Positions 1 through 35,287 of a stretch of DNA of 64,000 bases are shown one piece after another (positions within the stretch are counted from its first letter, which is position 1; every line of letters begins with the position of its first letter). Made by a program: the position numbers and the translations under genes. A model generated the notes under the pieces. That model did no database searches and was not told the DNA's origin. It worked only from the letters and a program-made list of their open reading frames with translations. Origin of the DNA: Chiloscyllium plagiosum (Eukaryota); NCBI RefSeq assembly GCF_004010195.1, contig NC_057753.1, positions 7,312,130-7,376,129 on the forward strand, written 5' to 3'.

Positions 1-175
1 ACCCAAGTAGGCAGGGACTTGAATAGTCCAACTTTCTCTCATCATGGATGACGGTCCTTATCTCTCACAAAGTGAGGACTTGCAATCTCAAACTGTCTAA
101 TTCAGGTTTGGGTGGGTGCGGCATTTTGGGAAACTCTGGTGGTAAAGAATAAATCAACGAATATTATTTTGTTTT

Positions 176-1077
176 TTAACGTTTAATGCAACTGGCTATT
201 CTGGCAAAGCGACATAACATCACCTTTTGCAGTTCCTCGCGGAATTTATTTTGTGATACTGCGTAAATGAAGACATTGTTGCAGGAACTGACTAACTGAA
301 GCAGGTTGGTCATCTCTTGAAGAATGTACCGTGGATTATTGAAATCCAGGCCAGTGAAGTATCCCTCGCCTGAAATTCGCACGTAGAGGAAGCGTCCAAT
401 ATATGTGACCCACAGGAGAAGAAAGCTCATTGAGATGGCAAAAAGCATAATAATGGACCTCCTGCGTTTGGCCATCTCATGATCTTGTCGATGTTCGGTT
501 CCCCTGAGCCTCTTGCGGGATCTGCTAGCCGCTATGATGTGTTTGACAGTAAAGGTGTTGAGCAACAGAATGAGGAAGAATGGGAGGAATGGGGTTAAGG
601 TATGGTCAATCCAGTCGTAGACTTGCCAGACTGACAAAATGTAGTAACTGTCCTTGATACCGCAGAACCAAGGCACCCCATCCAGAATGTACAAGGGCTC
701 GTGAATAAAGAAGTAAGGGACATTCTTGACGCAACTCATAGCACATATGATTCCGATGATTAGTGCTGCAGATTTCTCAGTGCAGTATCTGGTCTTCAGA
801 CTCTGGCAGCAGATGGCCACAAAACGGTCGATGGTGAAAGCCACAGTCAGCCAGACTGAACCATCCCGTGTGGTATAAGCCAGCATACTGGTGACTGTAC
901 ATCCAGGGGTGGTGGACAAGAGACTGTAGCGAAAGTAAGTGCCACCTATTCGGTTGAGGATCACGGCAATGACAATAACAAGGAAATCATTCACTGCTAT
1001 CATCACTAGATAGAAGGTGATGCAACGAGATAGTCCACACCGCCCTCGGGATAGAACTATGATCGCCAGCAAGTTGG
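176..1077 (-). CDS. GPR139/GPR142-like orphan class A GPCR gene 1, coding exon 2 (spliced CDS 972 nt, 323 aa)
   Basis: Open ORF with 7TM hydrophobic pattern, TM2 'AVNDFL', TM3 Cys and 'TIDRFVAIC', ECL2 'PWFC', TM5 'PFLPF', TM7 'NVFIY' and helix 8 'FREEL'. Acceptor 'tcatgtctcacAG' on the minus strand (AG at 1079-1078). A phase-1 join gives 'GVP-A-NLLAI'. Confidence 0.93.
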
Positions 1078-2059
1078 CTGTGAGACATGAAAAAGCAAAG
1101 AATGTTATGAACAGACTCCAAGCAATAGCTACACTTCATCTGCACTGTTAGTGGAAAACGTCTGAACCATCACAAAGCCACCTGCATACTCCAATCATTC
1201 AAGGGTAGTTTTTTATTTATTTTATTGTCCTGATTTTTACTGTATACATCAATAGCATTTTCAACACCTCAAAGCGTTTCCTGATTTTAAAGAAGTCTAG
1301 AAGTATTTGAAGTCACCGCATACCTGCAATACTATGTGTTTTTTAATACTCGGAGATGAATGCATCCCTCAATCTGGGAAACGTGCTTATCCACCAAAGC
1401 TCTAAACTCGGGAGGAACCCATCTCCCCCCGCTACCTACTCCATGACTCACTTCTCCTTATTCACTAAGGCCATTTTTTATTACCGTTGCTCTTTTCAAA
1501 CTTTTTGGCCTAATATTATGCAGCTCCGTATGAAATATGTTTGTTAAAGCGACTTTCAGGTAGCCAGATGACACATACAGCAGTCATTGCAGAAAGAAGC
1601 CGAGATCCGCCTTTGTAAATGGCAACTGTATATAATCAACAAATATTGGCATTCACGCTGCCCAAAGTTAAGATGATCATTTGAAATAAAAAATAAATAA
1701 TGAAATTAAATGTTTGATGAATCTTGCAAGCCCAATCACACCTTCACAAAGGTTGCCAATTAATTCCAGAAATCACATTTAAAATGGAGACTGTCCAGTG
1801 GGAAAATTGTTATATTGTACACATTGCATACTTCCAGTGATCGAGCTTTGAATTGTTGAAATCCCTGAGTGAAGTGCTACATTGTAATTAATTTAATGAA
1901 TCGTTTACACTATCATAATATGTATCTCAACATGGTAATATAACCAGCAAAATTGATCACATGATTCCATGCTATTTGATTATCCCATATGATGGGAAAG
2001 GCTGGAGATTGTCGTTTAGTGTTTCAGACTAAAAAAAATTAACATATAAGAAAGACTTA

Positions 2060-2290
2060 CTGATGCTGTAAATCAGAAACATTGACAGACGTTGCTGGAA
2101 AAGCTCAGCAGGTTTCACAGCGTCTGTGAAGAGAAATTAAAGTTAAAGTTACGGGTCTGGTCACCCTTCCTCAGCACGGTTGTGAGGAAGGTCACTGGAC
2201 TCGAAGCCTTAACTTTGATTTCTCTTCACTGATGGTGCCAAACCTGCTGAGCTTTTGCAGAAACTTCTGTTTGTGTTTCTAATGTATCCG
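2060..2290. mobile_element. Old fold-back (palindromic) Penelope-like terminal fragment, family 3
   Basis: Arms 'gttgctggaaaagctcagcaggttt' and 'aaacctgctgagcttttgcagaaac' are reverse complements. A decayed hammerhead-like 'gtgaggaaggtcactggactcgaagc' sits near the centre. Lies in the GPCR1 intron. Confidence 0.6.
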
Positions 2291-2430
2291 CGTTCGGGTG
2301 AGGTACTTTTCTCTCACACTGCGCTGAAGTTGATGGAAATAAAGCCAGAAATAGGAGACATTTCTGGACACTAACAACTACAACTAAATTTGCAAATGAA
2401 TTAGGCAATCACTTATGATTTTTCACTTAC

Positions 2431-2500
2431 CAGGGACACCAAGGACACCGACAATACAGTAGCAAATGGCAAATACTGGACTATTGGCTGCACCATGCAT
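2431..2500 (-). CDS. GPCR gene 1, coding exon 1 (MHGAANSPVFAICYCIVGVLGVP)
   Basis: ATG at 2500, 70 nt, followed by a canonical GTAAGT donor (2430-2425). Joins exon 2 in frame to complete TM1. Not in the ORF track. Confidence 0.9.
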
Positions 2501-4491
2501 CGTCTTTAGGATTTAACGGAATTCCCGAGACTGTAGACCTTCATTTGTGACACAGTCAATTTATTCCTCTTCTACGCTGCGTGAGCGTCTCAAGGGAGAC
2601 AACCAAGTTACAACATGAATCTCCCTTTAGATTCAGTGAACAAACACATTATCTCACTACTACAGTTTATAACATTGACAAGATGAATTTGAATAGTCAC
2701 TGGCTGTAAATTCTGCTGCTGCATTCTCCTGACAAGCCATGTAGATTTCTCTCCATCAAATGTAGCTTCTCATTGTAGACATCGTCTCATAGCTAACCTA
2801 AACATTGGTCATCATCTTTTCAGTTTTGCAAAAAATATTGTCTTTTTTGATGGCAGATTTTTTAAAGATATTTTCTGCATTACCAAGGGTTTTCGTCTTC
2901 ACTGTATTATTGTTGATTAAAAGTGTAAATTGATTTACAACGCAGTTCTAAGTTCGTGTCAACCAATAGAAAATATCGTCACAAATGTAATTTTTAGTAT
3001 GGATTTCTTGACCACGTGGAAAATGCTGAAATCTCCAATTATCCTGCCACATCACAAATGGAAGAAAGGCCTCCAAAGTTCGCTGTTCAGGCAAAGAATT
3101 TCTGATATACTTAAAGTCGACAATTTCTGTGTTGTGAAATAAACCAACTATTCTTCTGGTGCGTTAATAACTGGAACGTGGTTTATGAATTCGAATGAGG
3201 AATATTGACAAATGAATCAAGTTCAACGTAATATAGCTTAAGACAACATAAATAGCAATAAGCAAATGCAATAATATAAAATCCATTGCCCTGTACATGT
3301 TAACATACGGATTTGTGCACCACAAAAGAAACAAAGAATGCGTCCATTAACCTGCAATCTAATGTTGATATAATCATGGCTTAATATGATATTCAATGTG
3401 TAATTTACTGCAAATTTCAGACACAGAGTCTCACATGCTGCTGTACAATCCAGGAGGTTAAAAAAATCAGGAGAAAATGCAGAGAAAAGTGTTTCTTGGT
3501 ACAATCACACAACCTTCAAACTCTTTCGAGACTGCAAAGGTTTCTCCTTAGATCTAAACATGAGTATTTTTTTTAAACTGGAAACCTGGTCTGTGAGAGC
3601 TGGCCACGTCCAGGATGTTTCTGTTGCTCCAATCTTCAAAAAGTATCCCAAGGCCTTACAGAGTTTATTTTCTTAGAGACAGCGTTGTCCCTCTGTCTTA
3701 CAATCGCTCTTCAAAAAGGACAAAATAAACTCTTAAAATGACAGCACAATCACGTCATCTCCCTGAGAAAAAGCCATCAACATGCAAAGATGGCTTCATT
3801 TTTAAAACACGTACTCATACATGACAGCATGTATACACTGCATTGAATGTAAGCATGCAAACATTCACCATAAAGACCTGTGACAGTCCGTTTAGCCCTG
3901 CCACTGAATGTCTCCAACATGACAGCAATTATGTTTTCTTATCCTGCCACGTGTGAAAGCTTCAAATTGAATCTCTGTGCTAATAATCTCTATTGAGACA
4001 GTCTGAATCTCTTATCATGGTATTTATCCAAAGTTTTAATTATTTTTGATCTGTATGTATAATTTTCTCAACAACGTTACTGTCACTAAAAGTGTTGTAA
4101 TAGTGTGACGCCAATGCCAAGTTCTAGGTTTCCCTTGCAGTCATAGAATATTTAGTCTAATGAGTATTCAATTTTCTGAAAACAGAAATACCCACAGGTC
4201 TTTGGATCTTCTCGTCCTTATAACGGTATAGCACCGACATCAACGTGGAGAGCTAGCTTGAACGGCTTTGTGAAATTAGATGTGCCTAACACTGGGTATT
4301 TGGTTAATACAACTTTCAGAGAATCAAATGCCTTCCGACAGTCTGCTGTCTATGGAAACTTTCTGCAGGTGTTCAATAGGTCAGTTAATGGAGCAACCGT
4401 ACTGCGAACAATTTGTTATGAAATTGCGATAAAACCCATCCAATCTTAAACTTTCCTCCTCGTTAGTGGTTTGCAAAACTCCCCAACAGCG

Positions 4492-4870
4492 AGAAAGTGA
4501 GGACTGGAGTTGCTGGGGAGTCAGAGTCGAAAAGGGTGGCGCTGAAAAATCGCAGTAGGTCAGGCAGCATCCAAGAAGCAATAGAGTCAACGTTTCGTGC
4601 ATTCGCCCTTCGTCGAGAATGTGAAAGGGGAAGGGGTGAAAGATAAATAGGGGTTGAGAGTCGTCCTGCGGGTACGGTAAATAGGAAGTTGATAAGTGGG
4701 CGTAAATGTGATAGGTTAGCAGGGAGAATGGAACGGATAGTGGTAAGGAAAATGGACAGGTTGGACAGGTCAAGACGGCAGTGCTGAATTGGAGGATTGG
4801 ATCTCGGATGAGGAGTGAGAGGGGTCATTTGTAAACTAGTGAAATCGGTGTTGATCCCCTGTGTTTGAAC
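4492..4870 (-). mobile_element. Penelope-like element 3' fragment (ORF end plus terminal repeat), family 1
   Basis: Encodes 'QTQGINTDFTSL' (PLE endonuclease C-terminus), followed by the same terminal sequence as 13723-13852 and 49411-49616 with a decayed hammerhead core. Confidence 0.7.
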
Positions 4871-5000
4871 ATCAGTGTGGGGGCATCTTTCTATGTCCAA
4901 AAACATAGTCAATAAACGTGACTTGGGATTTTGCATACTCAATCTTAGCCAGGTTGATCATCAAGCCTGCCTCCTAAAGTCGGTCAAAAAATTCTGATAG

Positions 5001-5252
5001 ATAGAACATAGAACATAGAACATAGAAGAATACAGCGCAGTACAGGCCCTTTGGCCCTCGATGTTGCGCCGATCCAAGCCCACCTAACCTACACTAGCCC
5101 ACTATCCTCCATATGCCTATCCAATGCACGTTTAAATGCCCATAATGAAGGAGAGTCCACCACTGCTACTGGCAGGGCATTCCATGAACTCACGACTCGC
5201 TGAGTAAAGAATCTACCCCTAACATCTGTCCTATACCTACCCCCCCTTAATG
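5001..5252 (-). mobile_element. 5'-truncated young CR1 LINE 3' end
   Basis: (AGAACAT)n tail plus 'gaatacagcgcagtacaggccc...'. Near-identical to 24188-24430, 47186-47296 and 53003-53250. Confidence 0.85.
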
Positions 5253-7595
5253 CTGCAGATGTTCCTTCAATGCAGAACTGAAAATTACTAGGTCATCAAT
5301 GTGCAGCACACAATTAGGTAATCCATAAACGATGGTATAGCTCGTCTTTGAAACATGGCGGGCGCATTTCACATACCAAGTGGCATGACCTTAAACTGCT
5401 AAATTCCTTTCAGTTTCACAAAAGCCGAAATTCCCTTAGCTCTTTTAGATAAAGGCATCGGCCAGTCTTATCTGACGTTCTTTCCCTCTGGCATTCTTAC
5501 CAAATAATTCAACTCGCCCACTCTCCTTTTGAGTAGGTGAAGGTCCACGAAACCTTGCTTTTAAAGGGTCACCGAGCACTGGATATGCGACTGACACTTA
5601 ATTCTCTAAATAGCATTGACGGCAAACCCTCAACATGGATTTTAAAGTTTAATGCCACCGTTTTAATGCTCGCAGTGATTTTGAATGGTACGCATTGGGC
5701 TTGAATTTTATTATTTTTGCAGCTATCAGCAACTTCCATGAACAATTTCGAAGTACAATCTGATGGTAACCCTCTGCATGGATCTGATCAAATCCTTGAC
5801 TGACTCCTCCACAATCTTTTTTTGTTGTGAAATTGCTTAATCGAATGTCCTCGGAAACCTAGTAGCCATATTGATTTCAGTCAATAAATAATTAGTCCTT
5901 TTTCTATGTGAGGTAGCGTTCTCAAACAATAAATTGATATCCTTGCATAAAGTTCCTCACATGCAGGAAGAGGTATTGAAGGTTCTGGCATTATGCCTGC
6001 CTCAGGTTTTCCAAGTACCTGACACGTGTGACTTATTTGGCAAAATTCAAATCATTCATATGAATTTGTTACAGCACACAGGTGAAACCATCTGTTGATT
6101 AATCCAAACACTCAGAAAAGATCACCTTGCTTCCTAATATGTTAAAGTATGAGTGACAGAGAACTCCCAAATCCTACTATTTAATGAAAACAACAAATGT
6201 CCGCATTTTATATCCCCAACATCGGATCGTCTCATTATTTCAATATTGGGAAAGCAATAAATTCAAACGCGATTGGGTCTTAGTATCCTGGAGCATATTT
6301 TAAACTGAACGGTTACATTAGAATTGTTGCCAAAAACGGCACCAAAACTGAGATGTCCATTTCACAGTTAACTCTAATATATTTTCAATTTTACAGTGCA
6401 TTCTAGGACAGCCATCAAGTCATATGCACAGGTATGTGTCAGCTCTCAGTTAAGAACAGCATTCACTCTCTTTCAAAGGTACAGTACACGCCTTCAACTT
6501 CATAACAACTTGGCCTTAAGAAAAGACGAACCATCATATGAAAAGATGGCGTCATTTTTTTTTCTAATTCTTAACCCCATGGAAATGAAATATTTAGAAA
6601 TTAACACGTTCATGTTAATTTCTGCACACACATGTATAACGCTGGAAGTTGTCAAATCTTATCTGTAGTTTTTCTTTTAAATCCGCAGTAACGAGTCTGC
6701 TGTCACACTTTTATGAGGAGCAACATGTAGAATTTGTAAACTAAAAGTCTGTAATGTAATGCTCCAATGAAATAGTCTCATGTTTGTGCCGTTAAGTATT
6801 TCCAAGATACTAGGAAGTTTATGGTCCCTGTATGCAACTATCTCAAATCACATTGCTCATCTCATTGGTGTAGCTAAAACTGGTGCGGTGGATGATACTG
6901 CTTCTAAATTCACAAATGCCTCCTTTGATAATGCCTCCTTTCACAAATGCATCACTTAGAGGTTACAAACGAAGAATTTTCTTTTGCTTTCTCTCATCCA
7001 TGTATCTGCCAATAACCACGCAATAAGTACAACATTGTGATGTTGGTGGTTTGTCCAACTTTCTGTGTATAGTCCTCCAATCTTGGCACGGGATATGAGT
7101 CAGACTTTTTTGCAGTGTTCACCTTCCGATACTCCACATAAAATCGTTGAGTCCCATCTGGTTTGGGAACTAATAAAATCGGCAAAATCCATTCACTCAC
7201 AGTCCGTTCGATGATTTCTTCGTTGAGCATCGCATTCATTTTCTTCAGGGTCTGTATGGATTTGAAAGGAGGAATTCCGTAGGGTTGTTGTTCCATCGGA
7301 ACAGCACACCCTTCTTCCACATCATGCATTATAACATTACGGCTCCACATCTTATTCCTATGTATGTCCTCATTCTGCTGCAATATCCCTTTGAGCAGGG
7401 TTCTTTCCTCCTGACACAGAGAGTTCAATAACACATCCCATTCTTCAAGTACTTCCTCATTATTTAATGCATTTAGGGACAAATTAAACACCACGTCTTT
7501 TGGGTTTGATTCCGTACTCTGCGGGACAGTAACTAACACCTGTTTCTACAGTTTGTGTCTCTAATATAGAAAGTTGTCAACATATAGGACATAAA

Positions 7596-7950
7596 ACATT
7601 ACAGCGCAGTACAGGCCCTTCGGCCCTCAATGGTGCGCCGAACTGTCAGACCAATCTGAAGCCCATCTAACATACACTATTCCATGGACGTCCATATGTT
7701 TATCCTATGATGACTTAAATGTACTTAGAGTTGGCGAATCTACTACCATTGCAGGCAAAGCATTCCATAACCTTACTACTCTCTGAGTAAAAAAACTACC
7801 TCTGACATCTGTCCTATACCTATCTCCCTCAATTTAAAGCTATTCCCCCTCGTGCTCACCGCCATCATACTTGAAAAAGGCTCTCCCTGTCCACCCTATC
7901 TAACGCTCTGATTGTCTTATATGTCTCTATTAAGTCAACTCTCAACATAC
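7596..7950 (-). mobile_element. CR1 LINE 3' fragment
   Basis: 'acagcgcagtacaggcccttcggccct...' 3' UTR plus RT C-terminal sequence homologous to 24210-24540. Confidence 0.8.
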
Positions 7951-7959
7951 TTACATAAC

Positions 7960-8051
7960 TGGGTTTCGCTTCGGCGGGTCGGTGTGGACTTGTTGGGCCG
8001 AAGGGCCTGTTTCCACACTGTAATGTAATGTAATGTAATGTAATCTAATCT
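7960..8051 (+). mobile_element. HE1-type SINE 3' fragment with (TGTAA)n/(TCTAA)n tail
   Basis: Matches 59340-59424. Confidence 0.8.
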
Positions 8052-16659: not shown

Positions 16660-17234
16660 CCATTAAAATCTCCAGGTCAGTGCAGTGACACGAGGGAGAG
16701 GCGGTTCCTCTGCTCTGTGTGTGAGAAAACATTCACTCGGTTCACACACTTGCTGCAACACCAGCGATTTCACACTGAGAGGGAGGGCATTTACTTGCTC
16801 TGTTTATGACAAGGGATTTGCTAGCTCACACAACCTCACACACACACATTACTGTGACCTACTCATGTAGGTCACAGTAATGAGAGAACATTTAAATGTC
16901 AGATTGTGGGAAGCACTAAACATGTTCTAAGGCACTGATACGCCATCGAAGTGTTCACAGCGATGAGAAACTATTCAAGTGCTCTCAATGGGAGACTTTG
17001 TTAAAGCGCTCATCAGAACCCAAGCGAAATAAACGCATTCACACTTGGAGACTCACAACTTCTCCGTGTGTGTGTGTGTGTGTATGGTGGGGGGGGGGGG
17101 GGGGGGTCATCACTCCATCGTCTCAACTTTAGTCACACCAGGGCGGTAACACTGGGGAGAAGCTACATGCATGCCCCATGTGTGAACATAAATTTGTTCA
17201 TTCATCCCACCTGATCACACACCAGCGATATTAA
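16660..17234 (+). pseudogene. Tandem C2H2 zinc-finger pseudogene
   Basis: 'ERRFLCSVCEKTFTRFTHLLQHQRFHT' from 16696, linkers 'HSNERTFKC' and 'HSDEKLFKC', and last finger 'TGEKLHACPMCEHKFVHSSHLITHQRY*'. Contains frameshifts and a (GT)n/poly-G expansion. AATAAA at 17359. Confidence 0.85.
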
Positions 17235-20569: not shown

Positions 20570-21063
20570 TAGAATCCCTACAGTGTGGAAACAGGCCAAT
20601 CAGCCCAACAAGTCCACACTGATCCTCCGAAATAGCAACCCACAAAGACCCATTCTCCTCCCTTGTTAGTTGACAAGTACCCCTGACCAAAATACCGAAC
20701 CCACACACCCCAAACACTATGGGCAATTTAGTAGGTCAATTCACCTAACCTGGGGAAAGTGAGGACTGCAGATGCTGGAGATCAGAGCTGAAAAATGTGT
20801 TGCTGGAAAAGCGCAGCAGGTCAGGCAGCATCCAGGGAACAGGAGAATCGACGTTTTAGGCATAAGTCCTGAAGAAGGGTTTATGCCCGAAACGTCGATT
20901 CTCCTGCTCCTTGGATGCTGCCTTACCTGCTGCGCTTTTCCAGCAACACATTTTTCAGTAATTCACCTAACCTGCACATTTTCGGACTAAGGAAGGAAAC
21001 TGGAGCAGACCCACGCAGAAATGGGGAGCACCATGAGGTGACCACTGAGCCAAAGTGCCACCC
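20570..21063 (-). mobile_element. HE1-type SINE interrupted by a palindromic PLE insertion
   Basis: SINE tail at ~20570 and head at ~21060, split at the duplicated 'aattcacctaacctg'. Confidence 0.75.
20753..20959. mobile_element. Fold-back palindromic Penelope-like insertion, family 1, with hammerhead motif
   Basis: Inverted arms around 20866. CTGAAGA-A-GGGT-TTAT-GCCC-GAAA-CG-TC at 20869-20896. 15-bp TSD aattcacctaacctg (20738-20752 / 20960-20974). Confidence 0.85.
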
Positions 21064-21213
21064 ATGTCCAGGTTTTTGCCACTCCAGATTGCTCTATTTG
21101 GCTGGCAGCAGCCGTGATTGAATATTTAGTGGGAATTTGCTGTCAGAGCCTGAAGACTAATGCTGCCACGAGCAGATTACATTGCTGGCCATAAGAATAA
21201 TTTGTTTACTGAG

Positions 21214-23558
21214 TTGGAGATGCCGGTGTTTAACTGGGGTGTACAAAGTTAAAAATCACGCAACACCAGATTATAGTTCAACAGGTTTATTTGGAAGTGC
21301 CACAATGGTTAGATTGATTCTAATATTTTTTTTTTTTAAAATCGATTTACAGAATCTTACATGGATTTGTGCAGATTTTGAGCAAAGTAAAATGTAATTC
21401 TGCAAGGGCAAATGCATCCCGCAAACTTATAAGTGTATATGTGCATGTGAGTGTGAGTGTGGGGAGGCGTTGGGGGGTGTTATTATGTCTGTCTGTGAGA
21501 GGGTTCGTGTATGTGTATGAATGTGAGTGTAAAGGGGTTTAGGTCTGCGAGAGGTGGTGTGAGGCGTTGTATTTGTGAGTGTATGAGAGAAGGTCTGTGT
21601 GTGTATGCCTGTTTGTGTTTCTGTGTGTGCGCATCTGTCTGTCTGTGTGTAGATCTGTCTGTGTGTGTGTATACTGCAATAGGGTCACCTGTAGTGTGAC
21701 ATGAACCCAAGGTCCCGTTTGAGGCCATTCTCATAGTTACTGAACTTGACTATCAGCCTCTGCTCAGCCACTTTTCGGTGTTGTCTGCCCCGAACTCCGC
21801 CTTGGAGGACAGTCACCCGAAGTTCCATGGTTGAATGTCCCAGACTGCTGAAGTATTCTCTGACTGAGAGGGACCACTCCAGTCTGAAATGTCCATTCAT
21901 TGATTGCCGTAACCTCTGTTTAATCTCTCCAATGCACCATGCTTCAGGGAATCCTTGCCTGCAGCATATGAGATAAACAATGTTGGCTTAGTCGTATGAG
22001 TACCTGCTATGTTCATGGTGGTAGGAGTCCCCACGCATAATGGTGTTATCCATGTCGGCATTCTGACACTTGCTGCAGCATCTACTGTGACATGGGTGTA
22101 TGATATTGACCTGAAAGCGAGCAGTTTGCTACTAACAATGATCTGTTTGAGGTTTGGTGGCTGTTAAAGATGAGACGTGGAGATGTGGGAAAGGTCTTGG
22201 CGAGATGCTCATCCTCATTGATAACGTGTTGCAGGCTGTGATTAACATAGCGTAGGTTTTTGGCTCCTGGAAAATACTGGACAATGAAGGGTACCCTGTC
22301 GGTTGCAGCTCTCTCTCCTGAGGGTTCATTACAGTTCATCGTTGTGGCACGTCGGAACTGGCAATCGATGACTTGAACATCGTACCCCGTTCTTATGAGG
22401 GCATCACTGAATACTTCCGAGTCAGGGCACAACCCTTAAACAGATCATTGTTCATAGCAAACTGCCCAGCTTTCAGGATAATATCATACAACAATATCAC
22501 GGTAGACGCTGCAAGACGTGTCAGAATGTCGACACGGATGCCACCATTACGCGTGGAGGCACCGTCCACCATGTACGTGGCAGGTACTCATGTGACTCAG
22601 CCAACATTGTCTCTCTCATTCGCTGCAGGCAAGGATGCCAAGAGGCATGGTACAATGGCGAGATCAAACACAGGTTACTGCAACAGATGAATGGACACCA
22701 CAGAACAATCAACAGACAGGAGTGTTCCCTCCTAGTCGGAGAACACTTCAGCAGTCTGGGACATTCGATCTCGGAACTTCGGGTGACCGTCCTCCAAGTC
22801 AGACTTCGGGACAGACAACACCGAAAAGTGGCCGAGCAGAGGCTGATAGCTACGTTCAGTAACCATGGGGATAGCCTCAACCGGGACCTTGGGTTCATGT
22901 CACACTACAGGTGACCCTATTGCACTATACACACACACACACACTCAGACCCTCTCTCATGCATTCACACATACACTCCCACACAAACCCTCTTCCAGAC
23001 GTAAACCTCTTTACACACACACACAAACACATACACACCCTCTGACAGACACTCATAATTCCTCCCCCAAACACACACCCACATGCTCACATACACATAT
23101 GGGGTAAATTTGTACTGGCAGAATTACTTTCACTTTACTCAAAAATTTCATGAATCTATGTAAGACTCTGTAAATTCGTTTTTAGATTAGAATCAGACTG
23201 ACCATTGTGGCAGAAACAGACTCTGAGTGAGTTAACACGTTAAATACCTTTTCTGGGCCGACATGACACTAATTGTTAAAGTGCACGTGCGAATGTACCT
23301 TAAAAAGAAGTTTTGTGATTTACATATGAAAGAACTGAAACCATCAAGATCATTCTTAAAGATGGGAGATTTAGCAAACAATCCGGTATTTTTCAATATA
23401 TAATTTCAGTTACATCACACCATAAACTTTTGCTATAAAATCTGTCTTAGAGTCTTATTCCCAACAATCACCTGATGAAGGAGCAGCACACCGAAAGCAA
23501 GTGTTTCCAAACAAACCTGCTGGACTATAACCTGGTGTTGTGTGATTTTTACTTTGAC
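21214..23558. mobile_element. Penelope-like retroelement, family 2, inverted-duplicated, with GIY-YIG endonuclease C-terminus on both arms
   Basis: Minus 21685-22432 and plus ~22430-22914 encode the RT-linker and endonuclease end ('EHFSSLGHS...LRVTVLQ...RKVAEQRLIATF...LNRDLGFMSHY'). Each arm has a CA-rich UTR and the family-2 terminal repeat. Candidate TSD tactgag (21207-21213 / 23559-23565). Confidence 0.85.
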
Positions 23559-25170: not shown

Positions 25171-26151
25171 NNNNNNNNNNNNNNNNNNNNNNNNNNNNNN
25201 NNNNNNNNNNNNNNNNNNNNNNNNNNNNNNNNNNNNNNNNNNNNNNNNNNNNNNNNNNNNNNNNNNNNNNNNNNNNNNNNNNNNNNNNNNNNNNNNNNNN
25301 NNNNNNNNNNNNNNNNNNNNNNNNNNNNNNNNNNNNNNNNNNNNNNNNNNNNNNNNNNNNNNNNNNNNNNNNNNNNNNNNNNNNNNNNNNNNNNNNNNNN
25401 NNNNNNNNNNNNNNNNNNNNNNNNNNNNNNNNNNNNNNNNNNNNNNNNNNNNNNNNNNNNNNNNNNNNNNNNNNNNNNNNNNNNNNNNNNNNNNNNNNNN
25501 NNNNNNNNNNNNNNNNNNNNNNNNNNNNNNNNNNNNNNNNNNNNNNNNNNNNNNNNNNNNNNNNNNNNNNNNNNNNNNNNNNNNNNNNNNNNNNNNNNNN
25601 NNNNNNNNNNNNNNNNNNNNNNNNNNNNNNNNNNNNNNNNNNNNNNNNNNNNNNNNNNNNNNNNNNNNNNNNNNNNNNNNNNNNNNNNNNNNNNNNNNNN
25701 NNNNNNNNNNNNNNNNNNNNNNNNNNNNNNNNNNNNNNNNNNNNNNNNNNNNNNNNNNNNNNNNNNNNNNNNNNNNNNNNNNNNNNNNNNNNNNNNNNNN
25801 NNNNNNNNNNNNNNNNNNNNNNNNNNNNNNNNNNNNNNNNNNNNNNNNNNNNNNNNNNNNNNNNNNNNNNNNNNNNNNNNNNNNNNNNNNNNNNNNNNNN
25901 NNNNNNNNNNNNNNNNNNNNNNNNNNNNNNNNNNNNNNNNNNNNNNNNNNNNNNNNNNNNNNNNNNNNNNNNNNNNNNNNNNNNNNNNNNNNNNNNNNNN
26001 NNNNNNNNNNNNNNNNNNNNNNNNNNNNNNNNNNNNNNNNNNNNNNNNNNNNNNNNNNNNNNNNNNNNNNNNNNNNNNNNNNNNNNNNNNNNNNNNNNNN
26101 NNNNNNNNNNNNNNNNNNNNNNNNNNNNNNNNNNNNNNNNNNNNNNNNNNN
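25171..26151. other. Assembly gap (981 N)
   Basis: Run of N. Confidence 1.
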
Positions 26152-28929
26152 TAGAATTATAATCAACATTATGTCCAATGTCACCAACACGAAACAGGCA
26201 GTGCCATAGTGGTGTGTTTTCTGGAGTAAGTGGCTGGGACAAGGACCCAGTAACAGAGACTCAGAGACATATAGCATCTAACAGGAATGGATTCATTACA
26301 CGTCGTTTGGATGTCCGGTTCAGAATATATTTTATGTGAATGGTCTCAGTAACTAGAGATGTTAGTGTCACAAATAGATTGGAGAAGCCTGTTTAGAATG
26401 CCCCAATTGGCAGAAGTGTTAGCCTAAGTATGATTCTTGTGGATATGTAAGATAAGAAATATTGAAGTCTCCTCAATTTCTGCATCTGGTTGAACCGTTT
26501 GTTTTTTTTTTTATCATCTCCGCTCAGTCTAACATCCAAAATGTACTATTTCACATTTTGCAGTTTTTCACTTTCCCGTTCACCTATCAGTCCATTTCCC
26601 CAGATTGTCTTTATTGTGCTAAAGATCACAATCCTATTCATTGTTTACAACATCACCAAATTTCGTCTCATCAACAAAATTCGAAGTAATGTCACGTAAA
26701 CTGAAGTAAAGTTCATCGATGAGTTATCAAATGGTTTACCTCCTTCTTGAACACAATGGCTGCAGATATCACAGCTTTAAGTACCCCATAATGATTCTTC
26801 AAGTAGGTATATCGAGTTTCATAATGCATATCTATGTATCTGTGTTTGTGTGCACTTCTAAATTTGTTTGTGACTCTGCGTGAGCATGTGTCTGTGTAAG
26901 TCACTGTGTACATGTCACATCACCAGTATGTCTGAAAGCATTGACCTGCAAAACTCAAATTGGAGTTGAATAAATCCTTCATTAGATCAAATGTTCGGTA
27001 AAATGTAGAGGTGTGGATCCTTTCAGCTTTTGTTTTCAATTACCCGTCCTTGGCATGGCGACTGGCTCGACTCTGGCCAATTGGCAGAAGTGTTAGCAGA
27101 AGTATGGTTCTTGGGGCTATATAAATGTTCATAAAACATTCCTTTTACCACATCAGGCCATTCATAGATATCTTTCAGTGCAGTCTGTATTTTCTGAAGG
27201 CCAATTACAATTGTGTTAAACGCAAATTAAGTCGTCAATATATGCATCAATAAATCCCTTTCTCATCCGAACCCTAGCAAACCATTTATCTGGGATTTTT
27301 TTCCTGAGATCACCAGAAACGCGTGAGGGCGGGAAGAAGAAGGATAAACACTGCACAGAAAGGACATATTCAGGTGTAATTGAAGTGCCAGGTAATGAAA
27401 TGATAGCTGCAGAATGGAACTGTTACACGATTATTTATTTAACAATTCGTGTGATTATAGAAAATGTTGATGACGTAGTGGGTCATTGGATTAGTAATCA
27501 TCTAGGGATGTCTGTTTGAAAGGCAGCTGGTAACATTTAAATTCAGCAACAACAAAAATAAGTCGAAAGTTAGCATTCTGCCTTGCCTGGTCTGGCCTTT
27601 CTATTATTCCAGATCCATAACAGAGTTCTGACTGCCATCTGGGAAATAAATGCTAAAAGGCCAATGATACCCACATCCCAGGAACGATTTTGAAAAGCCA
27701 AATTGATAAAATAAAGGTGATGTTTAAAAGTAGAACCCGTGAATCCTTGTAAGTAGTATCTGTTATTTGAAAAATTACTTTGTGCCATGAATTGCTTTAC
27801 CTCAGAGTGTTGTTTTTACTTAGCCTGGTTGAATTGAGAACTCAGACACACAGCAAAATTATGCACTTTAACTGTACAAACAGATGACGGAGCAAGCCAC
27901 GTGGTTTACCAAATCGCCACAGAAATGTCCAATACGAATGAAACTGGATGCACTATATGGCATAATATTGAGCAAAAGAAATCGTAGAGGAACACACAGC
28001 TCTGTTGGCTCTGCAACGTTCTCCACACTGAAAGCTGAGAGATTATGGCACAATTTCGAAAGCTGTCACAAAACGAGTCAGCAACAACTTAACATAAACG
28101 TGTGCACAGAATCATACGTTACAGGCAATGTCCAGTTTCTAGAATTATAATCAACATTATGTCCAATGTCACCAACACGAAACAGGCAGTGCCATAGTGG
28201 TGTGTTTTCTGGAGTAAGTGGCTGGGACAAGGACCCAGTAACAGAGACTCAGAGACATATAGCATCTAACAGGAATGGATTCATTACACGTCGTTTGGAT
28301 GTCCGGTTCAGAATATATTTTATGTGAATGGTCTCAGTAACTAGAGATGTTAGTGTCACAAATAGATTGGAGAAGCCTGTTTAGAATGCCCCAATTGGCA
28401 GAAGTGTTAGCCTAAGTATGATTCTTGTGGATATGTAAGATAAGAAATATTGAAGTCTCCTCAATTTCTGCATCTGGTTGAACCGTTTGTTTTTTTTTTT
28501 ATCATCTCCGCTCAGTCTAACATCCAAAATGTACTATTTCACATTTTGCAGTTTTTCACTTTCCCGTTCACCTATCAGTCCATTTCCCCAGATTGTCTTT
28601 ATTGTGCTAAAGATCACAATCCTATTCATTGTTTACAACATCACCAAATTTCGTCTCATCAACAAAATTCCAAGTAATGTCACGTAAACTGAAGTAAAGT
28701 TCATCGATGAGTTATCAAATGGTTTACCTCCTTCTTGAACACAATGGTTGCAGATATCACAGCTTTAAGTACCCCATAATGATTCTTCAAGTAGGTATCT
28801 CGAGTTTCATAATGCATATCTATGTATCTGTGTTTGTGTGCACTTCTAAATTTGTTTGTGACTCTGCATGAGCATGTGTCTGTGTAAGTCACTGTGTACA
28901 TGTCACATCACCAGTATGTCTGAAAGCAT
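26152..28929. repeat. Direct duplication, 26152-26941 vs 28140-28929 (offset 1988 bp)
   Basis: About 790 bp nearly identical, with four substitutions seen. Duplicated ORFs appear in the track (26462/28450, 26713/28701). Confidence 0.95.
27480..27690 (+). mobile_element. Deu-domain SINE (SacSINE1-like), decayed
   Basis: 'ctgccttgcctggtctggcct...ctccagatccataac...ataaatgct...ccacatcccagga'. Confidence 0.5.
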
Positions 28930-29199
28930 ATCTTTGTATGCCTGCAAGTGTGTACGTCGACCAGCTTACCTGAGTTTATATGAGTGAATATTTCGATGTG
29001 TGTGAGACTGTTTGCATGTTTGTGTATGTGCATGTTTGTCAGCGTATATCTCTCTGTGTGAGTATAGTTGTTGCTTTATTTATGGATTTGTAAGCATCAC
29101 AGTGTGCACAAAGGCGTGAATGTATGCGTGTGGTTATGCAAGTCTCTACCTGTATGTGACAGAAAGAGAGAGAAAAAGGGAGAGACATAGAGAGAGCTA

Positions 29200-29440
29200 T
29201 AATTGTGTACAATTGATGACGAGGGAGTCCACGACTATAGGCCACAATCTAAGTATTTATGGTGTGCCATTTAAACTGAACTGAAGAGGAACATTTGTAT
29301 CCAGACAGTGGTGATCTTTCGAATTGTCTGCCACTGAATGCGGTCGTGGTCAAAACTTTTAATATGTTCAACAATAATGTAGACAGGCCCAAATGCTGCA
29401 GAGTTGTTGAGTTAACAGGGGCCTGAGTGGGAATGCAAAC
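29200..29440 (+). mobile_element. Old CR1 3' fragment
   Basis: 'gggagtccacgactataggccacaatcta...ctgaagaggaacatttgtatccagacagtggtg' is a decayed TRGH...RRNFFTQRVV region. Confidence 0.5.
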
Positions 29441-29675
29441 ATTCACAACCTGAACAACCAGCAAAGAAAATAGCTTCTCTTTCATGGTCCGCAGTGAATT
29501 TGACTGACAGAGGAAACGCGTTTGAACTCAGGTGGCTGCCTTTGCATCGATTCTTTATCTTCGGCAAGTTTCCTTATTTTATCCACAGTCACTCTGCATT
29601 TGTGAAATTTAAAGTATTTTGTTTTGCTAATGTCGCTGTCCGTTGATTGCACTTATTATTGCACGTATCTGGAGC

Positions 29676-29745
29676 AGGATGGCTTTTGAACCGGGGTCTC
29701 TCAGTTCAGTGTTAGGGACGATACCACTGCTTCACGAAGAGGCCC
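29676..29745 (-). mobile_element. tRNA-derived SINE head
   Basis: Minus strand 'gggcctcttcgtgaagcagtggtatcgtccct...gaccccggttcaaaagcc' has A- and B-box-like motifs. Confidence 0.45.
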
Positions 29746-31099
29746 GCCTCTGCCGCGGGTTTTCTAAGGTGCCCTGGGAGTATTTAGTGGCGCCTGGCTA
29801 CACAGGAGCAGGTGATTTTGTGATTTGTCCCCGTCCCAGTATGAAGCTTTAACCACTGATATTAAATGCTTCAATATTCTAACAGAACGACATTTTTTTG
29901 CTGTTGCGACCACCTAGAGTTCCTGGTTATTCTAACAGTTCGTTCAGGAATCTTAAACCCTCCTTCCATGACAGTGAATCCAACCTGCATCGCGCCGGGC
30001 AAAGCGCCAAATCATAAACACGAGACCACCAGGGAAGACTGCAGCCAAGCTGACATCTTTCCTTTCTGACGGGGCTTTTGCTTTCAGTTTGTTTTATCTG
30101 AAATTATTTCCACTGGAGATCAATTTCATCTCTAGTAAAATTGAATAATTGCGTTTGTACAGCATGAAAGAGGTCCTTTAAAACATCTGTCAATGCTGGT
30201 CATCAAACATCCATCTGTTCTAATCTCGCTTTCCACCACTTGGCCCCTTAGATTTGTAAGCTCTGACATTTCACGTGCTCATCTCAATAGCTCTTCAATG
30301 TCTTGAGTCTTTCAGTGGGACACGAACATCCTCTTCAGTGAAAAGAATGAACTATTACTTTTCACTTTTAGATGAAATCTACACTTCCCTCCTTGAAGAT
30401 TGCTTCGAAAGCACAACCGTTTTCTTCTAGTAGATTCTCACTTTTCCTAATGTGGCCTCACTCTCAGATGTTATGAAGCGCCTTGGAGCGTTTCATGAGA
30501 GAAGTAGAAAGGTACAAAATCTCATCTTGTATCTTTTCACGCTGATACTTTTCCTCCTGACGTTTATTCTGTAACGACACAATGAATGGGACTGAAGTTT
30601 AAGGTGGTGAAACTCTTCACCTCCCCGTTAGGGAATCAAACTGCTGCAACCCACACACAGACACATTCCGCCAAACGCGCAGAGGCTTCCACAGAGTCCA
30701 TGCCCTGAGAATGTAATTTCGCCCACTTAGCTCATTGTTTCTTCACTTAAGAATCAAAATTTCCTTAATGTTGATAATTCAACTGAAATTAAGGAATGTC
30801 GGGAATTGGAACGCTTTCCGCAACTCTTTGTTTTCGACAAGTATTTCCGCAAGGTCCCGTTTCAAATCAGAAATGGTGAGTATGAGAATCGGTAGGACTT
30901 GAAACTGCTCTGGGAGACACGTCATTTTCACCACTCGGTCATGTTTGCAGGATCCATGCATAATGCAACATCCGTCATTCAAAACTATAGCCTGGTTAAA
31001 GCAAGGAAAGAAATCATTTGGTTACAAATCTGCCCGTTTTACCCAATATGCTGACCACACTCCCACCTCAAGTTTTCCCCATCATTCTGCAGGTTATAC

Positions 31100-31807
31100 T
31101 GTTATGAAGGTGTAAGGGGTACTGTACCTTTAAGAGAGTTGAAGGACTTAGCAAGAACGCAGAGTGCTTGAGAATTTAGTGTAACATGTGGTCCAGCATT
31201 TAGCAGTAAATGGGTTACTTTGAGACAAAAAAAAACAAATTCAAATTCAGCCAGTTTAAGTTATGCCCCAAGATGATAAACACCAATCAAGTTTGAATTT
31301 GTTAGCTTGAAAATATTAAAACCAATTAAACGATCCGATCCTTTGGGTATAAAACCGAAAAAAGAATTGAACACTTTGGGGAGAAGTGCCAAGCCACGAA
31401 CATCTGCAGACTGCCCGCAGAATATCTCTCTTAAAAGTACCTTAAAAGCATCAATGACCTGTGAAACATAAATCCCCAATAAGAAGAAAATAAAATAGAG
31501 GAAGATACAAAGAGAAGCTGGCTTGTTTTGAAATTTGAATTATTGATTAATCTTTATCGGGGGTTTTATTGGACCAGTATTGTAGAAGGGACAGTAAAAG
31601 GTAGGTTAGAGAAACGCATTGTAAATAGTTGTTATTTTTGATTTAAAGAATAAAGATCTTCATTTGTTTACACTTCAAACGTGACTTTTGGGATATCTTT
31701 GGCCTATGGAAATTTAACAGATTACAGCGTGGGTTAAATCATTTCTCTGTTGCAGGTTTAAACTGGTAAGGGGGGGGGGGGGGGGGGGGTCACCCCGTGT
31801 AGTAACA
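31100..31807 (+). mobile_element. Solo LTR (708 bp)
   Basis: TGTTA...TAACA termini, perfect 4-bp TSD ATAC (31096-31099 / 31808-31811), internal TATAAAA (~31348) and AATAAA (~31649). Confidence 0.85.
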
Positions 31808-32746
31808 ATACGGCCATACCTCGTTCTTCCTCCCACACCCGAACATTCTTCATGGCAGTTGCTTTATGCCTGTCCAAACCACTTAAAAGATGAAACGGGA
31901 ATGTGGAAAGGGAACCATAGGAAGATTATTCCATCAAGGATATAAATCATTCATTTTGCTTTTGAAGATAATTTGGATATGGAGTATCTCAAAATGAGAC
32001 TCAAACTCACGAGTTCTTGCTTAGAACTTGATTGTTTACACAGAATGAGCTCAGGCTGTGAGGCTGGGTGTTGCTGGGTCCAGAAAACATAATAGTCTTT
32101 CCAGGCGAGCTCAACTGAACAGTTTAAAGTAACCACTTCGCCTTCTGTCTGAATATATCATCACAGCAGATCTGAAAAAGAAACCGTGTTCAATAAGAGG
32201 GGGAAAAAAAACTAAAAGGGGTATTTCAAATTCAGATTCAAACCACGTTCGGGAAATGAGTGAATAAAAGATATAACGTGTTTCATCTAGAATCACCTAT
32301 CTCAAAATCTCCTACATTATCTAAGCCCTGCGCAGGAGCATTGTCCCGTCAGTTCTGTAAAATGAAGGAGGATTTTAACCCAACCCAGTATCAAACGTTC
32401 AACATCAAAGGAGCATGAAAAACTCTATGTTATTATTGCTCAGATTTGAAAGTGCTGTGGGACAGAAAGAAATGCCGAAGGTTTTTAACTGTCTCATATC
32501 CCATTATTATTACTCTCCAACATCATTACACTCAGCTGTTTCACAAATCGGATTGCAGGATGTTTCTCTCATTGGTACTTTCATGTGCCTTGCAAACGTT
32601 ACTATCTTCAATACACTTGCCTTGTCCAGGGATTACTATCAAAGTCAATCATTCAACCTGTGGATAGTTCCATGTGACAATATTTTCAAAAATACGTTTT
32701 ATTCGTGAAATTTCTCAAAGTGTATGGCAAACTTTGTCGACTTGAT

Positions 32747-33053
32747 CCCTGCAGTGAGTAAGGAAAAAATGGGTGCAACCCCCTGCAATGAGTGAGGTCA
32801 TAAAGGGCCTGAGTCCTGCAGTCAGTGAGATCACAATGTGCTTGACCCCTGCAGTGAGTGAGGTCACAATGTGCTTGACCTCTGCAGTCTGTGGTCATAA
32901 TGTGCTTGAGCCCTGCACTGAGTGAGGTCACAATGTGCCTGACCCCTGCAGTCTGAGGTCACAATGGGCTTGATCTCTGCAGTGAGTGAGGATGGGCCTG
33001 ACCCCTGCAATCTGAGGTCACAATGTGCCTGACCCATACAGTGAGTGAGGTCA
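32747..33053. repeat. Minisatellite, about 9 units of 31/33 bp
   Basis: Consensus CCCTGCAG-T(GAG/C)TG-AGGTCACAATGTGCYTGAC, followed by TC/CA microsatellite. Confidence 0.9.
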
Positions 33054-33709
33054 GTCTCTATCTCTCTCTCACACTCACACACATACAGACACAAATACAG
33101 ACACAAATACAGACACACACGCATACACATAGACGCACACACACGTACTTTCTTCAGTTTCATTGAATTTAGCGCAAATCCTCTTTTGTTCTGGATCATT
33201 TTCTTTTCGCCCACCTGGCCATTCACCCATCAGCCTGTGCATATTCTCGATCACTGTTCTCTGAGTAGCTCCTCCTATGACAGTCTCTCCAATTCTCTTT
33301 GCTGCTATATCAAACAGAATCTCTCCCTTTCAGTCCTACAGTATGCTGTTCTAAGATTATATTTTTCATCCCCTCTTTCTCTGTTTGTTTGCTTCACTCT
33401 CTTGGCATCTGCGAATCATTTGGACATATGCTTGTTGCATATATGCTATCATATTATCTGTCTTTGATGATTCAACATAAAGATTTTAAGTCACCATGTT
33501 TCAGAATGCATATTGTTGACTGTAATCTGGTTAACATAACATGTTTGTTTAGTGACTGTAAGTAACAATAATCTCCATTGACCTTTGTGATGGCGCCAGA
33601 GGGTTTACTTTTTATATTAATGATGACGTAAGCAGCTTCATTCCATAATATCATTGAACGTATCGCCTCCAGCGCCAGTAGTGATCAGTGACTCGCAGTG
33701 GTGAAGAAA

Positions 33710-33806
33710 ATGTATAGGAGTCTCACACTAAATGGCAAGATAACAACGTTTCTTATTAATGTCCAAGAGATTTTCTACCCAGCTCTGGCTACTATTGGTG
33801 TTCCTG
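33710..33806 (+). CDS. GPR139-like GPCR gene 2, coding exon 1 (MYRSLTLNGKITTFLINVQEIFYPALATIGVP)
   Basis: ATG at 33710, 97 nt, donor G|GTATGT at 33807. Same 'GVP' phase-1 intron position as gene 1. Confidence 0.88.
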
Positions 33807-34388
33807 GTATGTCTCTGTATTTAACTGTAATCCTAATATTGTCATTTACCATCCTGATGCATTGGTGTTCATGGCCTTGGTAGGTTTATAGATCAATTTG
33901 TACATCTTCAAACCATGCTTCATCATATTTCAGATCTTCTGTAAGAAAGGGCCATATAATGCTATTATTCTGTTCATTGGCTGTCCCTGGATACGATCTT
34001 TATTTCATTCCGCTTTATGTAATTATTAGACCTTGCAAATTGTTCCCAGTTAACATCTTAGCATGTGTTCTCTTTCATTATTTCTTCAAATGTTTGTAAT
34101 TTTCCAAACATTAATAGAGGCCTTAATTCTCAAAAATACCTGCCTATTTTTAGAAATAAAACCCTCATCTTAATATGACAATGTATGCAATAACACTTCT
34201 ATAATGTGTAATGGTGCTTATGTTCTTTCCCTCATATCATTCATGGAATAGCCACATCCCTTTGAGGGATTGACAAATTTGTCTAAAGAGGCAATTTTGC
34301 AAATTCTGCTGTAACGAAATGTTTACAAAGTCTTATGAAGGAATAAATGCCTTCTGTTTGCATTCTTGTTTATTTCCCTTTCTTACAG

Positions 34389-35287
34389 TGAACCTAATGA
34401 CGATTGTAATTCTGTGTCATGGAAAATGTGGACTTTCGAAATGTGTCACGTGCTATCTGGTAGGCATGGCTGCGGCTGATCTCCTGGTCATTATCATCGA
34501 CCTTATATTGAGACATTTTCCAATTCTTTTTTGGAAACAGTTTCATTTTGTGTATTCCATCCATGTTTGTAATATCCATGCTATCATTCTTTATGCATGT
34601 ACAGACTGCTCTGTCTGGTTCACCGTCACTTTCACTGTTGATAGGTTTGTGGCTATTTGTTGCCAGAAACTGAAAAGGAAATATTGCACCAGCATAATCG
34701 CAACTTCAGTCCTTTCAACAGTAACAGTACTGAGTTTTTTAAAGAACATTTTTTGGTATTATATGTTGACAGCTAAGTATTGGCTTATTAACTTCCCTTG
34801 GTTTTGTGAGGTAAGAAGTGGTGTCATGGAATCTAAGGTTTGGGCAACAGTGGAATTTCTTCATTATATCTTTACACCATGTGTTCCATTTGTTCTGATA
34901 CTGCTGCTCAACAATTTAACCATCAGACATGTTTTAGTTGGCAGCAGAGCCCGTAAGAGGCTTCGGGATCACAGCTGTGCGAACAGTTCCAAAGACTCAG
35001 AGATGGAGAGTCGAAGGAAGTCGGTCATTTTACTGTTTGTTATTTCCGCTAATTTCATATTGTTCTGGTCAATATTTATGTTGTACTCTGTATGGTGGCG
35101 TATGTGGGTTTTTGGCTATGAATCTGTTTGGTTTCCTGAATTTTTACTGGAATTGGGCTTCATGCTGCAGCTCCTGAGTTGCTGCACTAATACTTGCATT
35201 TATGCTGTCACGCAGAAAAAGTTCAGGGAGCAATTGAAGAATGTAATGATATATCCCATTAGAGTACTTGGAAAGTTTAATAAGTGA
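34389..35287 (+). CDS. GPR139/GPR142-like orphan class A GPCR gene 2, coding exon 2 (spliced CDS 996 nt, 331 aa)
   Basis: Polypyrimidine tract plus 'ttacAG' acceptor at 34387-34388. Motifs 'GKCGLSKC', 'MAAADLL', 'TVDRFVAICC', 'PWFC', 'NTCIYAV..KKFREQL'. Stop TGA at 35285-35287. Confidence 0.93.

Follow-up and report, generated by a model that had tools for sequence, protein, structure and literature searches.

GPR139 and GPR142 (PDB 7vug and 9m42) are class A orphan G-protein-coupled receptors (GPCRs) that, according to PMC5430874, PMC7318219, and PMC12775434, are activated by L-Trp and L-Phe. GPR139 is described as a two-exon gene, with 70% identity between its human and zebrafish orthologues (PMC7318219). 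Activation of GPR139 is reported to depend on F109, H187, W241, and N271 (PMC5430874), and E108 and R244 are given as the polar anchors for a synthetic agonist (PMC12775434). Here, we analyzed a 64,000-nucleotide stretch of the genome of Chiloscyllium plagiosum (contig NC_057753.1, positions 7,312,130 to 7,376,129), referred to below as the window, which carries two GPR139-like receptor genes, gene 1 and gene 2, and we compared them and their relatives with these receptors.

Surveys of chemoreceptor genes give cartilaginous fishes about 10-60 olfactory receptor (OR) genes (PMC10116579, PMC10869828), with about 10-50 in PMC10116579 and a mean of 43.8 in PMC10869828, and explain the large noses and few receptors of sharks as discrimination traded for sensitivity (PMC10116579, PMC10869828). 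These surveys covered only the six known chemoreceptor families. With a much larger receptor family under the name "probable GPR139", this few-receptor puzzle can be put directly to the test in catshark tissue RNA data that already exist.

Gene 1 and gene 2 belong to such a family, which has multiplied greatly in sharks and rays, likely from one orphan gene that is apparently still single-copy in amphibians and sturgeon. We put the probability at roughly 0.55 that the family serves in chemosensation, as a so far undescribed repertoire whose ligands are likely peptide-like and not free Trp or Phe. What is new is an expanded GPCR repertoire from an unexpected ancestor. Its proteins are already in public annotation as "probable GPR139", and as a repertoire it is undescribed in the literature searched: no description of the shark family was found there, most subscription journals being outside the coverage, and the accessible sections of a GPR139 review and of a chemoreceptor review make no mention of it.

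Structure of the Two Receptor Genes

Gene 1 and gene 2 are two open, two-exon class A GPCR genes encoding 323 and 331 amino acids. They are transcribed apart, and their start codons are separated by 31,210 nt of repeat-rich DNA and a 981-N assembly gap, in agreement with the first-pass annotation, which had described two intact divergent seven-transmembrane genes about 31 kb apart. Gene 1 lies on the reverse strand. Its exon 1 (2500-2431, with the ATG at 2500-2498) holds 23 codons plus one base and encodes the N-terminus and the outer part of transmembrane helix 1 (TM1); the 1,353 nt intron (2430-1078, GTAAGT...CAG) contains a repeat element at about 2060-2290, and exon 2 (1077-176) runs from TM1 to the stop codon (protein P0001, starting at Asn1.50). 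Gene 2 lies on the forward strand and consists of exon 1 (33710-33806, 32 codons plus one base), a 582 nt intron (33807-34388, GTATGT...CAG), and exon 2 (34389-35287, TM1 to stop; protein P0002, also starting at Asn1.50). Both introns are in phase 1, after G-V-P and immediately ahead of Asn1.50, so the shared TM1 intron that had been noticed earlier is present in both gene models.

Neither spliced frame contains an internal stop. Splicing of both introns is inferred, and no spliced read was seen. The protein encoded by gene 2 exon 1 is identical at 21 of 32 positions to the N-terminus of catshark P0005, and that encoded by gene 1 exon 1 is identical at 12 of 23 positions to the N-terminus of skate P0307 and also matches that of P0141, which supports the gene models.

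The class A fold of the products is likewise established. The residues N1.50, D2.50, D-R3.50, P5.50, N7.49, and Y7.53, which mark a class A (rhodopsin-like) GPCR, are present, Pfam 7tm_1 scored 79.6 and 58.4 bits for the two genes, and an AlphaFold model of gene 1 exon 2 showed seven helices, helix 8, and a hairpin in extracellular loop 2 (ECL2) with a predicted local distance difference test score (pLDDT) of 90. The DRF, N(V/T)xIY, and PWFC motifs named in the first-pass annotation were found in both genes. C3.25 and the ECL2 cysteine are present in both, and the ECL2 cysteine was found in 33 of the 34 representatives with a residue there and in 121 of 121 members of the gene 2 set; this TM3-ECL2 pair is kept in the shark family, and the GPR139 chain was without it in the alignments used.

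Neither protein contains an extracellular N-glycosylation sequon. The very short N-termini that had been pointed out hold for these two genes but not for the family: the junction motif was located in 76 of 201 database models, and the N-termini of these 76 have a median of 60 residues. Between one and four tandem N-terminal units of about 14 residues are found in many proteins of the gene 2 subfamily (P0009-P0107, modeled in horn, sevengill, and saw sharks); the unit holds an N-glycosylation sequon and is absent from gene 2 and its catshark counterpart. Gene 2 had also been called Trp-rich, which is no special trait, as its 11 Trp compare with a median of 10 in 120 relatives.

Size and Spread of the Shark Family

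A search with gene 2 yielded 1,946 clusters (90% identity) at E<=1e-5. Among the best 120 of these clusters, 119 were named elasmobranch proteins and 117 were annotated "probable GPR139"; by species, 68 were from horn shark, 37 from sevengill shark, 4 from sawshark, 3 from whale shark, 4 from catshark, 2 from zebra shark, and 1 from bamboo shark. A single horn shark is therefore represented by at least 68 distinct 90% clusters in the best 120 of 1,946, which is not the single-copy state of GPR139. These counts bear out the suggestion of a lineage-expanded, GPR139-related family. A search with gene 1 yielded 101 clusters (50% identity) at E<=1e-30, and the family members among 20 representatives looked up included sharks, two skates, and the chimaera Callorhinchus. 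The next relatives beyond vertebrates in this search were mollusc, nemertean, and other invertebrate orphans.

The presence of many paralogues per species is established. In addition, summed contig depth, which is a pile-up of assembled contigs from public runs and not a copy number, reached 111,212 over the conserved parts of gene 2 in run X2, compared with about 3-27 in the unique flanks, and 23,534 in run X9, compared with about 5. For gene 1, the peak in run X9 was 280 versus 3-9. Gene 2 was read as a member of a very high-copy subfamily and gene 1 as a member of a smaller one. In metagenomes, one scan for DNA of related loci returned 0 loci and another returned one weak locus, L001 (37% over 43 amino acids).

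A third, decayed family copy lies between the two genes (21054-21176, forward strand). The fragment, which is absent from the first-pass annotation, covers TM3 to intracellular loop 2 (ICL2), its DRF motif is destroyed, and it was detected by tblastn (18/42, E 8e-5) and by the family profile (domain E 1.4e-4). A large lineage-specific family together with broken copies is the genomic pattern of chemoreceptors.

Relationship to GPR139 and Other Receptors

No Pfam profile of OR, V1R, V2R, T1R, or T2R matched either gene; at E<=0.01, only 7tm_1 and Srx did. An Asp at 3.32 is the hallmark of TAAR, and this residue is replaced by Ala in gene 1 and by Leu in gene 2. The two genes are thus outside the OR, TAAR, V1R, and V2R families, as had been proposed.

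Among solved structures, human GPR139 was the best match (30.4 bits, E 2.4e-6 for the gene 2 sequence), and the family profile scored GPR139 at 90 bits and the next receptor at 71. Two exons are common to gene 1, gene 2, and GPR139. When GPR139 residues were mapped via the alignment of gene 2 with human GPR139, the equivalents of F109 (3x33), H187 (5x43), W241 (6x48), and N271 (7x38) were Y/D/W/N in gene 1 and Y/H/W/F in gene 2, so that W6.48 is retained in both genes, H5x43 in gene 2, and N7x38 in gene 1. These features agree with the view that the genes are ordinary GPR139 or GPR142 orthologues, or a few extra copies of them, serving as Trp/Phe receptors in brain or endocrine tissue. That view is scarcely tenable and already largely refuted: a match of 30 bits to human GPR139 stands against 70% identity between the human and zebrafish orthologues, none of 155 family sequences has all four agonist-site residues together, E108 (E3.32) has become A or L and R244 (R6.51) Y or F in the two genes, and at least 68 paralogues occur in one species. 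Judged by these similarities, gene 1 and gene 2 are not GPR139 orthologues but members of a separate, distantly related family, and they are duplicates not of GPR139 itself but of a separate orphan that is apparently single-copy in amphibians and sturgeon. The loss of E3.32 and R6.51 in both genes also argues against a Trp/Phe site of the GPR139 type, the amino-acid ligand that had been considered. A fold search returned generic peptide and chemokine receptors (TM-score 0.64-0.79) without GPR139 among the rows shown, and it was not discriminating.

The relationships were examined in a careful tree of 32 rows picked from about 430 proteins; a quick-search tree of 66 rows agreed with it. Canonical vertebrate GPR139 and GPR142 did not turn up in the protein searches and are absent from both trees, in which only an amphioxus "GPR139" was included. 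In the 32-row tree, the shark family grouped with an amphibian/sturgeon clade (99/97), a second orphan clade was sister to them (97/96), and the amphioxus sequence fell outside all three. Gene 1 grouped with a bamboo-shark protein (100/100) and then with a skate protein (98/93), and gene 2 grouped with catshark and horn-shark proteins (100/98 and 100/100). From these placements, the two subfamilies likely predate the shark-skate split. Because gene 1 and gene 2 are in different old subfamilies, the pair is not a local duplication, and its head-to-head layout is probably incidental. A recent head-to-head duplication or a shared bidirectional promoter was also considered and was ruled out by the 40% identity of the two genes, their different clades, and the 31 kb of repeat-rich DNA between them.

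The amphibian/sturgeon orphan showed one cluster per species among 20 amphibian entries, plus sturgeon, in a word-limited search, and it appears from tree and search to be the nearest outside relative of the shark family and apparently single-copy. The second orphan clade, with one cluster in each of three sharks listed, spans coelacanth, ray-finned fishes, amphibians, and reptiles; no bird or mammal occurs among its named rows shown (P0227, P0316-P0433), and the names of two of its models include a fusion to TMEM183A, a hint as to the neighbouring gene. Extra orphans near GPR139/142 in bony fishes were named GPR210A/B in a survey of Ensembl genomes (PMC6504862), and the single-copy orphan clades may be among them.

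Ligand Pocket and Receptor Faces

The exon-2 proteins of gene 1 and gene 2 are identical at 116 of 291 positions (40%). For the extracellular loops the identity between them is 0.15, and for helix 8 together with the intracellular loops it is 0.57, consistent with the earlier observation of a similar intracellular and a divergent extracellular face. For the family as a whole, receptor regions were compared in matched pairs that were 40-55% identical overall; the pairs are not independent, and from the two 120-member sets only the first 70 members each were taken. The pocket was defined as 31 standard class A positions, anchored on conserved residues. Pocket identity was 0.33 in the shark family (451 pairs), compared with 0.74 (20 pairs) and 0.69 (947 pairs) in the single-copy clades. 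Identity in the extracellular loops was 0.28 versus 0.37 and 0.43. On the inner face, identity was 0.62 versus 0.47 and 0.61 in the inner transmembrane segments and 0.53 versus 0.45 and 0.35 in the intracellular loops. Inner-face motifs are almost invariant over 47 rows, the four key pocket sites occur in 30 different combinations in 35 representatives, and the pocket of the amphibian/sturgeon clade has a pairwise identity of 0.96. A conserved inner face and a divergent outer face are therefore established for the family.

Pocket variation between subfamilies, relative to the single-copy relatives, fits diversification of the ligand site, and this is not so within the gene 2 subfamily. The idea of diversifying pockets thus stands between subfamilies (0.33 versus 0.69-0.74) and falls inside that of gene 2. 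Gene 2 and its catshark counterpart are identical at 29 of 31 pocket positions and at 29 of 45 other outer positions. In the gene 2 subfamily, D2.57, R2.61, H3.28, D3.37, E5.39, H5.42, and E7.36 are fixed at 92-100%; variation is greatest in ECL1-3 and at positions 6.58 and 7.32. This conserved deep pocket with variable ECL1-3 suggests a two-part ligand site, made of a subfamily-specific deep anchor and variable outer loops, that would suit a peptide with a common end and a variable body. The ECL2 hairpin and the TM3-ECL2 cysteines are in favor of a peptide-like site, as are the closest folds, which are peptide receptors, although the fold search was not discriminating.

In the favored interpretation, the ligands would be water-borne and probably peptide-like, a different one for each receptor, and all receptors would signal through a shared G-protein pathway. 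The deep pocket of each subfamily would bind a common chemical group, and the hypervariable ECL1-3 with the tips of TM6 and TM7 would read the variable part of the ligand. The conservation of ICL1, ICL2, the inner parts of TM5 and TM6, and helix 8 points to one G-protein class for all members.

The same outer loops can be explained in another way. MRGPR and formyl-peptide receptor families have expanded in other vertebrates for internal surveillance, and the shark receptors might likewise be carried by immune cells, mast cells, gut, or somatosensory neurons, where peptides from microbes or damaged tissue would be their ligands. Hypervariable outer loops over a fixed deep pocket in the gene 2 subfamily fit such an arms race as well as they fit smell, and short N-termini and two-exon genes are compatible with it. 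Loop aromatics are, however, barely above those of the single-copy relatives (0.23-0.25 versus 0.20-0.22), without an antibody-like surface; an antibody-like aromatic surface was ruled out for the family on this ground. We regard internal surveillance as rather unlikely, and further evidence on both sides is given below with the expression data. Fast change in the outer loops is also what would be expected of receptors that serve recognition on sperm, on eggs, or in the reproductive tract and that diversify by sexual selection or conflict. Direct evidence for such a role was not found, and distinct subfamilies with distinct pockets, long kept in sharks and skates, fit a broad ligand repertoire better, so that reproductive recognition is very unlikely.

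Selection and Decay

The family probably evolves by birth and death, as the relic copy and the apparently unconstrained gene 1 suggest. The gene 2 coding piece 34606-35156 differed from the sequence of a related species (run X9, record 10) at 4 of 551 bases, compared with 51 of 828 in the 3' flank (p 5e-8), which corresponds to 0.7% in the coding part and 5-6% in the flanks. This is below the expectation for silent drift (p about 0.004, a rough estimate), and three of the changes listed affect residues in ICL3 or close to it. At the DNA level, gene 2 appears to be constrained, and homogenization (gene conversion) among close paralogues or an unusual constraint on silent sites is possible. Gene 1 may be relaxed or may be changing fast under selection. 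Near its C-terminus it has an Arg at a position that is Pro in related contigs and in the family consensus. The species of run X9 has a second copy of the gene 1 locus (window 60-2950; records 19 and 23), about 10% diverged and with gaps in the coding piece, so the gene 1 lineage also duplicates locally.

Part of this pattern could result from mostly passive amplification. In that case, segmental duplication in repeat-rich regions would multiply a small core of functional genes, and the majority of the copies, possibly with gene 1 among them, would be drifting or recently dead. The relic copy within the window, the coding divergence of gene 1 that equals its intron divergence, the Arg in place of the consensus Pro, the close but gapped paralogue that gene 1 has in run X9 (record 19), and the many among the top 150 gene 1 representatives that cover only part of the query would all follow from it. 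It would not account for frames that stay open across 323 and 331 codons, counterparts kept across shark orders and skates, inner-face motifs that hardly change over 47 rows, or the strong conservation of gene 2 relative to its flanks. We therefore consider passive amplification quite unlikely as the main explanation.

Promoters and Expression

In mouse, Ebf and homeodomain sites mark OR promoters and enhancers (PMC5608512). An Ebf (O/E)-like palindrome was found by pattern match 88-97 nt upstream of the gene 1 ATG (2588-2597), with a near-match in the opposite orientation at about 2620-2631. The window holds just two exact matches to the pattern, this palindrome included, where 3.9 were expected by chance; the pattern was picked after the gene 1 site had been seen. 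The palindrome lends weak support to a sensory role, and it is a weak point against internal surveillance; Ebf is also active in B cells. Near position -90 of gene 2, a homeodomain-like hexamer and a cAMP response element-like octamer are present.

Transcript data came from runs of unspecified tissue. In run X22, of which about 2% was read, gene 2 was covered at a depth below 1 and only in the conserved bins of the paralogue pile-up; no reads fell on gene 2 exon 1 or on the unique bin 34838-35004, and no splice joint was seen. Run X23 contained nothing on gene 2, and runs X22 and X24 contained nothing on either exon of gene 1.

According to PMC11979771, catshark OR genes are expressed outside the nose, including in spleen, stomach, and testis, and the testis is also enriched for or2 and several v2r genes of this species. 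The type of a receptor family therefore does not fix its tissue. The first of these reports supports internal surveillance, as sensory-type receptors seem to have been redeployed in sharks, and the second supports reproductive recognition.

Strength of the Chemosensory Interpretation

Several observations weigh against the interpretation of the family as a chemosensory repertoire. In a sample chosen for its resemblance to gene 2, the pocket of the gene 2 subfamily was better conserved than the remaining outer positions (0.81 versus 0.71, p 0.018), unlike the pattern in odorant receptors. Among the representatives, pocket variability did not significantly exceed that of the remaining outer positions (0.34 versus 0.38, p 0.20), and these representatives of 50% clusters are biased toward divergence and may include dying copies. 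Gene 1 showed no pocket excess relative to its bamboo-shark counterpart (21/31 versus 30/45). Its coding piece differed from run X9 at 16 of 436 positions, compared with 37 of 933 in mostly intronic sequence (p 0.88, without a gap). Monophyly of the shark family by itself was weak (80/51 in the 32-row tree). No O/E site was found within 600 nt upstream of gene 2, and 41 loose matches to an Lhx2/Ebf composite in the window, compared with 46.8 expected, are not above chance. The catshark nose has only microvillous neurons and robust V2R expression (PMC10116579), and the catshark OR expression outside the nose points the same way.

If the chemosensory interpretation is correct, the family would be an instance in which, independently within vertebrates, a neuropeptide-type receptor gave rise to a repertoire of chemoreceptors. 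As a tentative extension that we hold somewhat less probable than even, hundreds to thousands of these receptors might be the main smell or skin chemoreceptors of sharks and rays, peptide-tuned and expressed one or few per sensory cell, and might constitute a seventh family of vertebrate chemoreceptors that arose from a single neuropeptide-type orphan. This would overturn the view of sharks smelling with a few dozen receptors. If the role is immune or somatosensory instead, the family would nonetheless rank with the largest vertebrate GPCR expansions that are unstudied. For the ancestral ligand, a tractable model is offered by the single-copy relative in amphibians such as Xenopus or axolotl.

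Other Features of the Window

The DNA around the genes is rich in repeats. A direct duplication of 790 nt (26152-26941 and 28140-28929, 99.5% identity) begins at the end of the N gap (25171-26151) and is possibly an assembly artefact or a very recent tandem copy. A 33/64-nt minisatellite (32780-33053) precedes the gene 2 start codon by about 650 nt, and a GC-rich tandem repeat of 59 nt (61287-61643), with a CCAAT box and a GC box per unit, resembles a promoter or an array derived from a long terminal repeat. Very high-copy palindromic or inverted repeat pairs were found at 36764-37352, 21298-23212, 2069-2286, and 48665-48893; in run X22, large numbers of poly(A)-primed reads fall on the pair at 36.7-37.3 kb, and the sole Rfam hit, a sub-threshold hairpin, came from the pair near 48.8 kb. 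A lone C2H2 zinc finger (16711-16773, forward strand), with a frame broken soon after it, is a relic of a zinc-finger gene. The decayed neighbours mentioned in the first-pass annotation are accordingly confirmed for this zinc finger and not for tRNA, as neither ARAGORN nor Rfam detected any.

Comparison with Known Systems

The shark family resembles GPR139 and GPR142 in its two exons, the absence of Pro at 7.50, the retained W6.48, and the aromatic residue at 3.33. In contrast to these receptors, each of which is one highly conserved gene, it has many copies, E3.32 is replaced by A or L and R6.51 by Y or F, and P6.50 is lost; unlike the aligned GPR139 chain, it possesses the TM3-ECL2 cysteine pair.

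The amphibian/sturgeon orphan (Pleurodeles P0216, Xenopus P0289, Acipenser P0305), also annotated "probable GPR139", is sister to the shark family or nested at its base. The two share the short N-terminus, the TM1 junction motif, CC after DR, YCT in ICL2, a DPEM-RR-SI stretch ahead of TM6, and KFR in helix 8. The orphan differs in having one cluster per species and a near-frozen pocket that keeps F3.33, W6.48, N7.39, and P6.50. To our knowledge, no function has been assigned to it. The second single-copy orphan (coelacanth P0227, catshark P0316, teleosts, amphibians, and reptiles) belongs to the same wider GPR139-like group and shares the short N-terminus and the "probable GPR139" name, but it forms a separate clade (100/99), has an ERF motif, and lacks W6.48.

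With the OR, TAAR, V1R, V2R, T1R, and T2R families (PMC10869828), the shark family shares the genomic pattern of many paralogues, broken among intact copies, and compact genes. It also shares with them a variable outer face and a conserved signaling face, and differs by its descent from a peptide-receptor-like group. Invertebrate expansions of the Srw/FMRFamide-receptor-like type, such as nematode srw, fall in the same broad group; Atlas neighbours carry Srw/Srx domains, and gene 1 itself passes Pfam Srx at 24.9 bits. Unlike those expansions, the shark family expanded independently inside the jawed vertebrates, and the invertebrate sequences lie outside amphioxus GPR139 in the tree.

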